Shown piece after piece: positions 44,488-62,480 of a stretch of DNA of 64,000 bases. The notes under the pieces are model-generated. The model saw nothing but the letters and a program-made list of their open reading frames with translations, did not search any database and was not told the origin of the DNA. Every line of letters begins with the position of its first letter. The stretch's first letter is position 1. This DNA comes from a virus (Duplodnaviria; Heunggongvirae; Uroviricota; Caudoviricetes): the IMG/VR virus record IMGVR_UViG_2671180724_000008, one strand, 5' to 3'. A program made the position numbers and the translations under genes.

Positions 44488-45022
44488 TCACCGCTGACAG
44501 CATACACAATCAACTACCGCTGATAGCATATCGAGAGTCTATCTTACCGCTCACAGCATACTTTACTCGATTTTTTACCGCTGACAGCATACTTAAGACA
44601 TTGCATGAATAATGTGTACCGGTATGGGTATAACCAGAACAAAATTACCGCTGGCAGCATACGAAGGTCTGACATATACCATTAATTACCGCTGATAGCA
44701 TATCCAAACAAAAATTCCTCAATAAAACACCGCTGACAGCATACGTTCTATCAGGGAGCAGCAGGCAATAAATGCCTTTCACTACAAGCAATCAGCGCAA
44801 TAGCAATAGAATGTTAGTGAGCGCAAACCTATATGGAATGCACTCTTCGAGGTTAGTAACCACTGGGGAGGTATGACAGAGCATTGAGTGGTGATAGATG
44901 ATTTACCGCTCACAGCATACGTTCATCTCACTATACCGCTGGTAGCATATCTTTAACCGTTCACAGCATACTTTTCAGAAAAATAGCCGCTGATAGCATA
45001 CATTTCACCGCTGACAGCATAT
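44488..45022. repeat. iteron array downstream of repA (12 copies, incA-like)
   Basis: Twelve direct repeats with consensus (T)ACCGCTGACAGCATAC at irregular 20-45 bp spacing, in two clusters (7 + 5) separated by about 140 bp. Confidence 0.85.
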
Positions 45023-46116
45023 CAAAGCAGTTTGAGACTATTGGAAAGGATCTCAATCATCTTGATATTTTCAGGCGTCAAATTCTGCGAAAGTTCGGTT
45101 ATCTTGTTGATAATGTTCTGTTTAGCATCAATTTCCCCGGCTTTCTCATCTGGTTTTTTGGGTTCGATGTCTTCAGGTTTTGGCGGTGCGACTTTAAGTT
45201 TTGGATTACGGCTGTGAATCTGGATATAGATCGACCGCCCTCGCTTAATCTCGCTGTATTCGAGATAGCCCAAATCTTGGAGAGCTTTTAAGCCGTTACG
45301 TATAGTCTGATTCTGCGAGCTGACATTCCTGCTACTCAAATTGAGTCGCGCACGCAATCGAGCAAGCGATACCGGCGCAGGCTTGGTTGGAAGACTTTCG
45401 ATGAAGGTGTACAGAGCCTGTGCTGTTTCTTTGCGTGGTAGCTTATTGATAACCTTTAACTGCAAAAGAACCTTATGGTCAAAGCGATATAGTTCGGCCA
45501 GCTTCGGTTCTGCATAGAACACCACCGTATCTTTCTGCTCGTTGTAGTCCACGCTATTGATGAGGTGCACCATCAGAAGCGAGATCTTGTTAGAGCCGTC
45601 GACGTTCTTTTCTTCATACGTTCTCTGGAAAGACAGAGTTGTACGCATGATCTTCAAAAGACTGTTTGTAAGCCGGTCGCGGAGTGTTTTGCGGATCTGT
45701 GACGATGGATAGCCACAAAACTTCGCAAATTTCGTGATGCTTAACTCGACACGACCGTTAGGTTCGCCGTATTCTGCCAGCGAACGCACAACGCCCACCC
45801 ACGTTTTGAAATCATGATCCATGTCGAGACGAGGACCGGTTATCTTGATGTCGGAATAGCCTTCAGAACGGGCTACTTCGAGCTGAACAAGCTCCTTTGA
45901 AGCATCGATTTCATTTGGCTTGTTACGCTTGCTGTATTTTGTCCCCTTGAGCGTGGGCACGAACAACCCCAGCCGCATCAACGCAATTGGTTGGACTGTA
46001 TTGTTGCTATTAGGGACAAGTTCCCCTGTGTACAATTCAAGGGAACCTTCTTCAAAGTTGTCGAGATTATCTTCTACTTCTTTGTTATTTTTACCTTTTT
46101 TATTTTTTGTGGACAT
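45022..46116 (-). CDS. repA: RepA-like iteron-binding plasmid replication initiator
   Basis: Minus-strand ORF flanked on both sides by iterons. Start set at MSTKNKKGKNNK (ATG at 46116-46114) so that the coding region does not overlap the upstream iterons; the track start is 46236. Confidence 0.7.
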   Translation of the reverse strand: MSTKNKKGKNNKEVEDNLDNFEEGSLELYTGELVPNSNNTVQPIALMRLGLFVPTLKGTKYSKRNKPNEIDASKELVQLEVARSEGYSDIKITGPRLDMDHDFKTWVGVVRSLAEYGEPNGRVELSITKFAKFCGYPSSQIRKTLRDRLTNSLLKIMRTTLSFQRTYEEKNVDGSNKISLLMVHLINSVDYNEQKDTVVFYAEPKLAELYRFDHKVLLQLKVINKLPRKETAQALYTFIESLPTKPAPVSLARLRARLNLSSRNVSSQNQTIRNGLKALQDLGYLEYSEIKRGRSIYIQIHSRNPKLKVAPPKPEDIEPKKPDEKAGEIDAKQNIINKITELSQNLTPENIKMIEILSNSLKLL

Positions 46117-46134
46117 GTGGACACCTTTGTCATT

Positions 46135-46237
46135 CAACCGCTGACAGCATACTTGATTTGCCGCTGGCAGCATACAAAAAACAGTTGGCAGCATACGGCG
46201 AACCGTTGACAGACTATCAATTACCGCTGACAGCATA
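46135..46237. repeat. iteron array upstream of repA (5 copies, origin/incC-like)
   Basis: Five copies of the same CCGCTGACAGCATAC-type repeat, two of them degenerate, in the repA promoter region. Confidence 0.8.
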
Positions 46238-46278
46238 CATGAACATGGCTTCAGACCAGTCGTGGCGCGGCTTACAGC

Positions 46279-46351
46279 GATCGGGGATCTTATTTGATCT
46301 ATACAAGGATCTATCTATGGATCTCTTTATTAGGATCTATCCTGTGGATAT
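46279..46351. promoter_or_regulatory. origin-associated GATC cluster with DnaA-box-like sequence
   Basis: Six GATC sites within about 60 bp (46279-46337), followed by tgtggatat (reverse complement atatccaca, 8/9 match to the DnaA box TTATCCACA), adjacent to the iterons. Confidence 0.65.
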
Positions 46352-46437
46352 GTGAATAATTAAAACAGGCATTTACTACCTTCGGCGCACCTGGTGGGTT
46401 ATCGTTGCCTCGGCTAACAATCACAGAAAAATGACAT

Positions 46438-47082
46438 ATGGATCTAAAACGCACGCGCTGGGTTCGTCGTCTTGAAGACGGCTCATACACTATCGAATCA
46501 AATTCCAACCTGAATAAGCAGAAGTTGCTTTGTGACATCTGCGGTATAGCGGCGAAGTGCCCGATCTACGAAACCAGAATAAAACTTGATAAGGCTGGTG
46601 TGAATTTTCATTTAAACAGTTGCATCAGGTACGTTCCATTGCTCGCATTTCGTAAACCGATCATCGGATTGGATGCCCCCTACTTCAACACACTCCGTTC
46701 AGGTGTGACGTGGCGAGATCGTTTATCACCAGACAAGCTGATTTGCCTTGTATCCGCAGACACAGGGAAAATCATCCGTTTTGGGAAAGTAGACAAGGTT
46801 TACTCAGGTCCAGTAGACGAAATGTTGCGGAAACACAGCCGGTTTAATCATCTCTGTATGGGTGGTGAGAAAATCGAAAAGGTGGAAGAAGTGATCCGTA
46901 AATCCTACGGACACTTTCTGACCAAAGATAGCCTGCTCACCGCAATCTACATCAGACATGTAAAACGTGAGTTCGACCTCGAATACCACAGCGAAGAAGA
47001 GCTTAACCTTGTTGACCCACGTCCAAAAGCTGGCGTCATAAGCATAAACGCAGCGCGTAAAAAGCCCACTGACGCGCTGTAA
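46438..47082 (+). CDS. hypothetical protein
   Basis: 214-aa ORF next to the origin. Confidence 0.4.
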   Translation: MDLKRTRWVRRLEDGSYTIESNSNLNKQKLLCDICGIAAKCPIYETRIKLDKAGVNFHLNSCIRYVPLLAFRKPIIGLDAPYFNTLRSGVTWRDRLSPDKLICLVSADTGKIIRFGKVDKVYSGPVDEMLRKHSRFNHLCMGGEKIEKVEEVIRKSYGHFLTKDSLLTAIYIRHVKREFDLEYHSEEELNLVDPRPKAGVISINAARKKPTDAL

Positions 47083-60477: not shown

Positions 60478-61287
60478 ATGAGTTCGGTTGAAAATGTAAT
60501 GACAAATGATGATCTGGACGAGCTGACAGCCATGTTGCAATCACTTGATGAACCAGTAAAAAAAGCTGCACAGGTTGAAAATACTGATGATATTGACGAT
60601 CTGCTGCTCGGCCTCGATGCTGGCGTAGCCATGAGTTCTGATGATGTTGCCGAAGAACTGTTCAATGAAGAAAAAGCAGGTGATTTCAGCTCTGCTTTAA
60701 ATGAGTTGGAGTTAGCGCATGAGCCTATAAACGTAATTAACGCTGAAAGTGGTGAAGCTGCCGAAAATGAGCCAGAACAGTTGGGGATCATTGAGGTTGA
60801 AGAGTGTGTTGAGGTTAATGATGAATTAAAAGTTCAACAGTCAAATGATAGCAATACAAATAAAAAAACTCGTGCTGCAAGAGGTCCTCGTTTTACTTTA
60901 AGTGATAAAGATGATTCGTTTTTCAATAAAGCAGGCTTAGAAAAAGATATTTTCTTAGACGCTTACGAAAACGCGCCTGTCAAAGCGAAGGATAAGATAT
61001 TAAACCTTCTTAATTGGTTTAGCGGAGGTCCAGATATTAGTGTTTACACGGTAATTTCCATGAGACACCTTCTTACAGAAAAGAAGGCTACAAGTAATAG
61101 TATTAAGATTGCTTTAATGAGCAATCCAGAAAAACCGTATCCGCTTAACACTGCGTCAACTCAGGCTGGGCAAATGATGGCTGTATTTCCAGCTACAGGA
61201 ATTGCCGTTAGAGACGGTGGAAATCTAACATTGAACGAAGAATCACCGATCGTTAAGAAGTTTGTCGCGGAGTACACTATTGGATGA
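60478..61287 (+). CDS. acidic hypothetical protein
   Basis: 269-aa ORF with RBS aaggag upstream; Asp/Glu-rich N-terminal half. Confidence 0.4.
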   Translation: MSSVENVMTNDDLDELTAMLQSLDEPVKKAAQVENTDDIDDLLLGLDAGVAMSSDDVAEELFNEEKAGDFSSALNELELAHEPINVINAESGEAAENEPEQLGIIEVEECVEVNDELKVQQSNDSNTNKKTRAARGPRFTLSDKDDSFFNKAGLEKDIFLDAYENAPVKAKDKILNLLNWFSGGPDISVYTVISMRHLLTEKKATSNSIKIALMSNPEKPYPLNTASTQAGQMMAVFPATGIAVRDGGNLTLNEESPIVKKFVAEYTIG

Positions 61288-61364
61288 CGTTCCCCTACTG
61301 AAAATAAAGCCCATAGAGAGCTTTATAGTGCTGGGTAAGCTAATCACATACCCAGCACCATAAA

Positions 61365-61410
61365 AACGCGCCAGAGAGCTTCTTGTTCGCATTTCTGGCG
61401 CGTTTTATTT
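61365..61410 (+). terminator. rho-independent terminator
   Basis: aacgcgccaga / tctggcgcgtt 11-bp stem followed by ttatttgatt; a second hairpin gtgctgggt / acccagcac lies just upstream. Confidence 0.7.
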
Positions 61411-61470
61411 GATTGCCATACATAAAATCAAATGCAAAAATAGGTAATCACTTACCTATCGAGAAAGAAG

Positions 61471-62064
61471 ATGATTGCAGCCGAAAAAATCAAACAGCGA
61501 AAGCGCGACAACTCTCTTCGTGACCTCTGGAGAACACCTGATTGGCTGTTTTCTGCCATTCAACGTTATCTTGGAGTGACATTTGATGTTGACGTTGCCT
61601 GCAACAAGGACAATGCAAAGCTGCCTAATTTCATAGGCATTGAGCGTGATGCTTTGAAATCTGAATGGGGACAGCCAGGTACAATTGCCTTCCTCAATCC
61701 ACCCTACTCCAAAATCTCCCCCTGGATTGATGCGGCTATACGTGAGCAGGCTCGCGGAGTTACAACAGTGATGCTAATTCCTCAATCCCTCGATACAAAG
61801 TGGTATGAGCGTGCAACAGAGTATGCGAATGAGACGATTATTCTGTCTGGTGGCCGCGTAGCGTTTGTCGAGCCTGACGTCAATTTGGGTCAGGTAGAAG
61901 TAAACATCAACCCCGGTGGCAGTATGCTCGTTGTTTTTCGAGGATTCTGTCAGGACGCTGGGCACTCTATAAGCAAGATCCCTTTGGACGTCATGAAAAG
62001 TCTGGGAGGGTATGATCCTGCGAATGTGGTCAGGAAAAAAAGACCATCAAAGAAGGCTGCTTAG
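61471..62064 (+). CDS. phage-type DNA N6-adenine methyltransferase (Dam-like)
   Basis: 197-aa ORF with catalytic NPPY motif (AFLNPPYS); small size is typical of the phage Dam family. Confidence 0.6.
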   Translation: MIAAEKIKQRKRDNSLRDLWRTPDWLFSAIQRYLGVTFDVDVACNKDNAKLPNFIGIERDALKSEWGQPGTIAFLNPPYSKISPWIDAAIREQARGVTTVMLIPQSLDTKWYERATEYANETIILSGGRVAFVEPDVNLGQVEVNINPGGSMLVVFRGFCQDAGHSISKIPLDVMKSLGGYDPANVVRKKRPSKKAA

Positions 62065-62087: not shown

Positions 62088-62148
62088 CCTGCTTCTGTAA
62101 ATAAATAACTACATATTAATTATTAATATACGGAAGCAGGCTGTTTTG
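62088..62148. repeat. conserved hairpin element, copy B (cctgcttc / gaagcagg stem around an AT-rich loop)
   Basis: Same 8-bp stem and similar AT-rich loop (gtaaataaataa...) as copy A at 15393..15455, followed by ctgttttg. Confidence 0.5.
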
Positions 62149-62249
62149 TATCAGAGACTCCCAGACCTGAACACCACTACAGAATCCACTAGAACCCCTT
62201 CTCAGACGCTTTAAAATCGATTTTATGAACCACTTTAAGGAAAACTAAC

Positions 62250-62480
62250 ATGTCATACCCGACCAATGTTGTTGCGCTCGTAGAGAGCGATTTTCTGGCT
62301 AAGGCTCGTGAAATGATGAAAGATCGCGAGCAGGCTTTCAACTTGTACGAATGGGCAATTAAGTGCTTGCATCTTGGGGAGCATCGCGAACTTGTTGAAC
62401 AGCTTTTAGGTGAGTTGATCAACGAGGTGTTTGCCTTGAATGTTCAACTACATGGTCGAGAAAATAATCAATCGAAATGA
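62250..62480 (+). CDS. hypothetical protein
   Basis: 76-aa ORF with start context aaggaaaactaacATG. Confidence 0.35.
   Translation: MSYPTNVVALVESDFLAKAREMMKDREQAFNLYEWAIKCLHLGEHRELVEQLLGELINEVFALNVQLHGRENNQSK

Follow-up and report, generated by a model that had tools for sequence, protein, structure and literature searches.

Does a DNA methylase encoded by a phage-plasmid serve the GATC-clustered origin of the same element? This question is raised by a window of 64,000 nucleotides (the whole stretch of DNA that was analysed), in which a small adenine methyltransferase gene and such an origin lie 15.1 kb apart. The reading we favour, at a probability of roughly 0.6, is that the gene encodes an orphan GATC methylase that would top up host Dam during amplification of the element. 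As to when the enzyme acts and for what purpose, we consider the proposed answer evenly balanced.

The gene and its catalytic motif are located as follows:

61471..62064, plus strand: dam-like gene for an orphan phage N6-adenine DNA methyltransferase (PF05869 / TIGR01712), based on the ORF, profile matches, an AlphaFold2 model and pN/pS
61696..61707, plus strand: codons of the NPPY catalytic motif (motif IV), residues 76-79, read from the sequence

The ORF opens with ATG and encodes 197 aa (the coordinates include the stop codon). Its product matches Pfam PF05869 'DNA N-6-adenine-methyltransferase (Dam)' with E=5.4e-38 and 130.8 bits (cut-off 28.1), the NCBIfam equivalog TIGR01712 'phage_N6A_met' with 113.6 bits (curated cut-off 97.05) and PHROG 111 'DNA methyltransferase' with E=3.5e-65. 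A single small domain with NPPY in 197 aa fits the definition of the PF05869 family, a (D/N)PPY motif in one small domain of ~140-240 aa. Across 21 homologues N76, P77 and Y79 are invariant and P78 is nearly so; the motif aligns with those of the T1, HP1, Stx-phage and Phi93DAM-type enzymes, and is kept without change in the characterised GATC enzymes. PF05869 is the sole Pfam family at E<=0.1, and the D12-class Dam profile PF02086 (E. coli Dam, T4 Dam) gives no match: the protein stands outside the classical D12-class Dam family, though its action may resemble that of Dam.

The AlphaFold2 model (pLDDT 86.6, pTM 0.84, input of 21 homologues) is consistent with a Rossmann-type SAM-dependent methyltransferase fold. 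Its best Foldseek matches in the PDB are the N6-adenine DNA methyltransferases M.TaqI, CamA and M.BseCI, which are distant (TM ~0.45), and a sequence search of solved structures with the protein gave no match at E<=1. Target-recognition residues cannot be mapped, because only distant N6-adenine methylase folds are found among the solved structures. Overall, the protein is almost certainly an active N6-adenine methylase, and an ordinary representative of the small DNA adenine methylases of phages. Existing records already name the gene: both the SSU5 genome record and hundreds of RefSeq plasmid records list it as 'phage N-6-adenine-methyltransferase', and the family is curated.

The window belongs to a phage-plasmid of the SSU5/pHCM2 type, ~109 kb in size. 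It is colinear with many complete ~109-kb plasmids, and the methylase and the GATC cluster sit on one element. A 5-kb query around the methylase is 99.7% identical to E. coli plasmid AP026520.1 (114.7 kb), and is covered to 80% or more by 173 plasmids; among phages, the same region shows 98% identity to Escherichia phages CMS-2020a, PhiR41_1 and Cyrano and 79% to Salmonella phage SSU5. The complete close relative pEA11_2 (109,354 bp) combines tail, capsid, portal and terminase genes with a plasmid replicon, and encodes its own replisome (DnaE, a DnaB-like helicase, primase and ligase). The methylase itself is surrounded by a DNA-metabolism block: SbcCD-like proteins, NrdA/NrdB, thymidylate synthase (ThyA), dihydrofolate reductase (DHFR), a DnaQ-like 3'-5' exonuclease and RNase HI. 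The last two are its neighbours, together with proteins of 269 aa and 76 aa that have no Pfam match. An endonuclease partner was found neither beside the methylase in the window nor near it in the RefSeq annotation of the complete relative; the methylase is therefore an orphan. Searches for literature on methylation in SSU5/pHCM2 elements returned nothing relevant.

The gene is widespread and well conserved. At least 80% of the methylase protein is contained in 729 PLSDB plasmids, and the gene is present in 206 of the 5,426 complete E. coli genomes, where it is nearly always plasmid-borne. E. coli, Salmonella, Cronobacter, Klebsiella, Enterobacter, Xenorhabdus and Providencia have orthologues 190-210 aa long, encoded on contigs that measure ~105-113 kb, and full-length orthologues reach down to ~55% identity. 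Against the SSU5 and Klebsiella orthologues pS is 0.65-0.76 (near saturation) and pN 0.08-0.11, giving a ratio of 0.12-0.17; these values are proportions, as synonymous sites are saturated and a Jukes-Cantor dS is not computable. Such ratios indicate that the methylase is under strong purifying selection.

The surroundings of the gene contain four further features:

61363..61406, plus strand: upstream hairpin followed by UUUUAUUU, a terminator-like end of the preceding transcription unit (13-nt perfect inverted repeat)
61413..61441, plus strand: weak sigma-70-like promoter candidate, TTGCCA-17-AAAAAT, TG-extended (consensus scan)
61440..61459, unstranded: perfect palindrome ATAGGTAA-tcac-TTACCTAT, 12 nt before the methylase ATG (recurring intergenic element)
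62088..62140, plus strand: downstream hairpin followed by CUGUUUUGU, a terminator-like end of the dam transcription unit (inverted repeat)

Both hairpins are followed by a U-run and are kept in SSU5 and the Klebsiella relative, with predicted RNA folds of -25.5 kcal/mol upstream and -19.8 kcal/mol downstream (z=-5.2 for each); the downstream one carries compensatory changes in the Klebsiella relative. Judged by this anatomy, the methylase is a small transcription unit of its own between terminator-like hairpins. The sigma-70 promoter scan upstream of the methylase gave no enrichment over shuffles. The palindrome (TAGGTAA-N4-TTACCTA) occurs in six copies in the window against 0.16 expected, all of them intergenic and just upstream of plus-strand genes, and it is present at orthologous sites in SSU5 and the Klebsiella relative. 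The complete relative holds ten copies, some of which separate capsid, portal and terminase genes. We considered whether the palindrome might be an operator dedicated to replication genes and rejected this, given the copies between late structural genes. For the same reason it is best regarded as a general intergenic element of this phage group, which does not mark early genes and is silent on the timing of the methylase.

The target of the enzyme is quite likely the adenine of GATC, as judged from its relatives. T1 Dam, HP1 Dam, the Stx-phage dam and the Phi.16 gene all belong to PF05869; pairwise identity among the four is 32-36%, and between them and the window methylase 27-35%. In this comparison VT-2 Dam is represented by the Stx-phage dam of phage JLK-2012 (assumed to be of VT-2 type) and Phi93DAM by the Phi.16 gene, whose ends match the published Phi93DAM cloning primers exactly. 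T1 Dam is reportedly GATC-specific. VT-2 Dam and HP1 Dam appear in reference lists as cloned Dam enzymes; literature that mentions M.EcoVT2Dam regards it as homologous to Dam. M.Phi93DAM produces G6mATC, as shown by DpnI/DpnII digestion and SMRT sequencing (PMC4190342). As these four divergent characterised members share the GATC target, the parsimonious expectation is that the SSU5 clade methylates GATC too. DNA methyltransferase specificity can shift over distances like 27-35% identity. The SSU5 clade also carries an insertion of 3 residues and, at the C-terminus, a basic tail of ~25 residues, both missing from the characterised enzymes. A literature search for experimental work on the window methylase or its close orthologues found none.

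Two other groups of adenine methylases were considered as kin and rejected. The non-specific enzymes Hia5, Hin1523 and Nma1821 have a DPPY motif, are of the alpha class and are related to classical Dam (PMC3299994). The relaxed-specificity phage enzymes OS31_p25, ARM81ld_p56 and phiP27 L24 were set aside as well; phiP27 L24 is a PF01555 protein of 352 aa.

The replicon on which the proposed methylation would act comprises five elements:

44491..45022, plus strand: 12-iteron array, downstream of repA and equivalent to incA, the copy-control locus of P1 (motif search and P1 layout)
45022..46116, minus strand: repA, iteron-type initiator (Pfam Rep3_N; BLASTP to P1 RepA)
46138..46238, plus strand: five origin iterons of the CCGCTGACAGCATAC type, counterpart of P1 incC (motif search and P1 layout)
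46279..46337, unstranded: six GATC sites in GATCT repeats resembling the oriC 13-mer, homologue of the P1 oriR Dam-site core (scan and alignments)
46343..46359, unstranded: two DnaA-box-like nonamers, TGTGGATAT and TGTGAATAA, which align with the annotated P1/P7 oriR DnaA site (sequence and alignment)

The GATC sites start at 46279, 46286, 46296, 46308, 46320 and 46334, which places six in 59 bp, between the five iterons and the DnaA-box-like nonamers; repA (on the minus strand) lies beyond the iterons. This is the sole such cluster in the window. The window's GATC total is unremarkable (258 against 245 expected), and when its 258 sites were placed at random six fell within 60 bp in 205 of 200,000 placements (~1e-3). 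Iteron matches number 20 against 1.35 expected; for the origin iterons, four copies lie within 3 mismatches, and the fifth, degenerate copy (~46203) was read from the sequence.

With blastn the origin region matches P1 and P7 oriR at 77-83% identity, and the matched stretch is exactly the annotated Dam methylation sites plus the DnaA site of P1/P7, aligned base for base. RepA is 46% identical to P1 RepA over 278 aa (BLASTP, E=4e-86). These homologies identify the plasmid replicon as an R replicon of the P1 type. Across four diverged origins of the SSU5 group (window, SSU5, Klebsiella phage ST13-OXA48phi12.3 and Cyrano) every one of the 24 GATC columns is invariant, whereas among the 35 other columns 15 are invariant and 20 vary (Fisher p=1.2e-6). 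This contrast indicates that the origin GATCs are under selective constraint, whereas the spacers between them vary; indirectly, it would fit an origin that needs adenine-methylated GATC to initiate and is bound by SeqA when its core is hemimethylated.

The preliminary description of this DNA thus stands in its observations. It had pointed to a small NPPY-motif adenine methyltransferase at 61471-62064, which the ORF and the PF05869, TIGR01712 and PHROG 111 matches bear out; to a GATC-clustered origin with six sites in 60 bp, which is found in 59 bp at 46279-46337 adjoining repA; and to the presence of both on the same element, which is one SSU5-type phage-plasmid. Its suppositions fare less well. 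That the enzyme methylates GATC agrees with the most likely target given the four characterised family members, though as a prediction from 27-35% identity. That the element sets the methylation state of its own origin is half sustained: the origin is a real P1-type origin with conserved GATCs, but nothing ties the enzyme specifically to it. In the plasmid state there is little room for independence from host Dam, as all genera carrying the element are Enterobacterales, which possess Dam.

Our favoured reading follows the phage side of the element. About 2,000 phage records contain a PF05869 methylase, those of the non-plasmid T1, HP1 and Stx phages among them; since the family is common in phages without a plasmid origin, the methylase looks like a phage trait and not a replicon trait. 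It would act as a stand-alone SAM-dependent methylase that puts the same GATC mark on DNA as host Dam, and would add GATC-methylation capacity when lytic or induced copying outpaces scarce host Dam, so that progeny and packaged genomes would become fully methylated. Host Dam is indeed limiting on a fast-replicating phage: about 50% of lambda GATC sites are methylated (PMC3299994). The P1-type origin could benefit, in that fully methylated incoming DNA would fire and evade SeqA binding upon entry into the cell. Further gains may lie in avoiding MutH nicking and in protection from enzymes that cut unmethylated GATC. The element's own replisome, not oriR, probably drives lytic replication; if so, we infer that oriR would benefit only at establishment.

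A direct role at the origin can be conceived in two forms. In the plasmid (prophage) state, the element's own Dam might set origin methylation and free replication control from host Dam. The homology to P1 oriR with six conserved GATCs speaks for this, as does the retention of the methylase in essentially every member of the plasmid group; so does the occurrence of two oriR-type lineages, P1 and the SSU5 group, each with a GATC-type methylase (of different families). P1 plasmid replication reportedly needs methylated DNA (title of Abeles & Austin 1987), and a further title describes adenine methylation control of P1 oriR at two levels; as far as such reference titles go, they point the same way. 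Nonetheless, hosts with Dam already supply the methylation, so the plasmid state needs no second enzyme, and the gene lies 15 kb from the origin, inside a phage DNA-metabolism block and in a family frequent in phages that lack plasmid origins. An extra constitutive Dam would moreover shorten the hemimethylated period and weaken SeqA-based control. The C1 operator annotated at P1 dmt implies that Dmt is repressed in the prophage, and E. coli prophage Dam homologues have been reported to be transcriptionally silent in lysogens (PMC4659465). We therefore hold control of the origin in the plasmid state to be decidedly unlikely. The other form is a licence for plasmid establishment, in which full methylation before packaging would ready the six-GATC origin right after injection, while SeqA would sequester genomes with too little methylation, or these would not initiate; the unrelated GATC methylases of P1 and of the SSU5 group would then have been recruited independently to one and the same end. 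This form we consider unlikely.

The remaining alternatives move away from the origin. Anti-restriction as the main role, with GATC self-methylation blocking MboI/DpnII-type enzymes, has a precedent in M.Phi93DAM, which shields DNA from DpnII and whose lactococcal hosts have GATC-specific restriction systems (PMC4190342); it also agrees with a methylase that has no partner endonuclease and with the tendency of phage DNA to be under-methylated by host Dam (PMC3299994). In Dam+ hosts, however, a methylation-sensitive system cutting at GATC would be pointless against DNA from related hosts, and full GATC methylation would expose the DNA to methyl-dependent enzymes of the DpnI type. In addition, GATC is not depleted in the window or in the complete relative (456 against 420 expected in the latter), which suggests no strong restriction pressure at this site, and such a main role is unlikely. 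A different or relaxed specificity, yielding a broad restriction shield as with Hia5 or the M.EcoGII-type phage enzymes, would suit the low identity to the GATC enzymes and the insertion and C-terminal tail of the clade, and such phage adenine methylases do exist; but all those checked come from other families (the DPPY alpha class, or PF01555), whereas 4 of 4 characterised PF05869 members are GATC-specific while being as divergent from one another as from the window methylase, which makes this explanation very improbable. Finally, it is hardly credible that the enzyme regulates the phage cycle by way of specific GATCs, for instance as a packaging licence like that of P1 pac or by stabilising lysogeny. 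Cleavage of P1 pac is said to depend on adenine methylation, and host Dam is required for stable 933W lysogeny according to a cited title; yet the origin is the only dense GATC cluster in the complete close relative, where no second, pac-like cluster was found near the terminase genes or elsewhere.

Compared with known systems, the methylase most resembles T1 Dam, HP1 Dam and M.EcoVT2Dam of Stx phage: all are orphan enzymes of PF05869 / TIGR01712 with a single NPPY domain, encoded among early or DNA-metabolism genes. Apart from the sequence distance, and from the insertion and basic tail that belong to the window methylase, they differ in being carried by integrating or virulent phages, while the window methylase, with its predicted GATC target, resides on a phage-plasmid. 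M.Phi93DAM is likewise a PF05869 enzyme in which NPPY is the sole classical motif recognised, and it makes G6mATC and guards against DpnII (PMC4190342). Unlike the window methylase, it is a protein of 140 aa (33% identity) encoded between the terminase genes of a virulent Gram-positive 936-type phage, whose hosts have GATC restriction systems; those of the window element are Dam+ Enterobacterales.

The closest parallel for the arrangement as a whole is P1. The two elements have a homologous RepA and origin core in the same order (copy-control iterons, repA, five origin iterons, GATC repeats, DnaA boxes), and P1 also encodes its own methylase, Dmt, annotated as GATC-specific. Dmt is however a 754-aa fusion of a C5-cytosine methylase (PF00145) and a D12-class Dam (PF02086), unrelated to PF05869; its gene lies 3.5 kb from oriR, with the annotated C1-repressor operator at its promoter, and P1 oriR has five GATCs (annotated Dam sites) against six in the window origin. 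As the P1 and SSU5-group methylases come from different families, the GATC-type methylases were acquired independently. P1 thus already provides an example of a phage-plasmid that combines a Dam-site origin with a GATC methylase of its own, and since both the gene and the type of arrangement had been described, the finding is of limited import. It nevertheless opens the SSU5-type replicon to direct comparison with the well-studied R replicon of P1, and homologous origins combined with non-homologous GATC-type methylases raise the question whether self-methylation aids establishment after infection. SSU5-type phage-plasmids are common in clinical Enterobacterales.

A minor observation concerns the left end of E. 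coli oriC, which resembles the window origin in having GATCT-N-TT-type repeats followed by a DnaA box of the TGTGGATA type. We take these to be the 13-mer unwinding element and DnaA box R1, and treat the likeness as a lead only. The two differ in that the window origin relies on an iteron-binding Rep protein.

The replicon of the window, SSU5 and Cyrano appears, from sequence comparison, to be built of modules. We compared the replicon region (window 44491-46360) with the origin regions of the Salmonella phage SSU5 (L007) and the Escherichia phage Cyrano (L009), where similarity starts only at the GATC core (query positions 379 and 351) and the alignment gives iteron regions that appear unlike that of the window. 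Together, these observations suggest that a Rep/iteron specificity module has been swapped beside a conserved unwinding and DnaA-box module. The origin is directly adjoined by a conserved 214-aa ORF (window 46438-47082, + strand), which also adjoins the origin in SSU5 and in the Klebsiella relative (phage ST13-OXA48phi12.3). It had no Pfam match in the window protein search; the Cyrano annotation lists its counterpart as an ASCH domain protein.

The 18-bp palindrome TAGGTAA-N4-TTACCTA is found far more often in the window than expected (six copies observed against 0.16 expected), each time in an intergenic position directly upstream of a gene:
10446, 18 nt
15534, 18 nt
47206, 18 nt
51890, 18 nt
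61441, 18 nt
63654, 18 nt
The palindrome is kept at orthologous positions in SSU5 and the Klebsiella relative, and the complete relative pEA11_2 (L015-L017) carries ten copies, preceding replication genes and also lying between the capsid, portal and terminase genes. The examined stretches of P1 and T1 did not contain the palindrome. It might serve as a promoter or operator specific to the phage, or else as an RNA hairpin, for which the folding energy is -7.1 kcal/mol.

Around the methyltransferase gene dam, the following features were recorded:
60478-61287, + strand, upstream flanking gene, 269 aa with an acidic N-terminus
62150-62215, CCAGAC/CTCCCAGAC-type motifs in repeated copies, past the dam terminator and ahead of the next small gene
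62250-62480, + strand, downstream flanking gene (that small gene), 76 aa
Both flanking genes are found at the same place in SSU5 and in the Klebsiella relative, and a Pfam search gave no match for either. In the regions downstream of dam in these same two relatives (L010, L011), an inverted copy, GTCTGGGAG, lies across the terminator hairpin from the repeated motifs. The repeats may form a protein-binding site flanking the dam terminator.

One dam homologue, P0069, is located on a 5.2 Mb E. coli chromosome contig. It looks degenerate: in the alignment of homologues, 45 residues are missing at its N-terminus and its sequence is scrambled past the NPPY region. It is probably a decayed integrated copy.

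Outside the window, pEA11_2 holds several further genes (record positions):
87767-89452, DUF4942 protein
75985-79276, metG and apbC
63365-64713, ParB/Srx-domain proteins
The DUF4942 protein is 561 aa long, metG and apbC are host-like, and the ParB/Srx-domain proteins, two in number, adjoin the terminase region.
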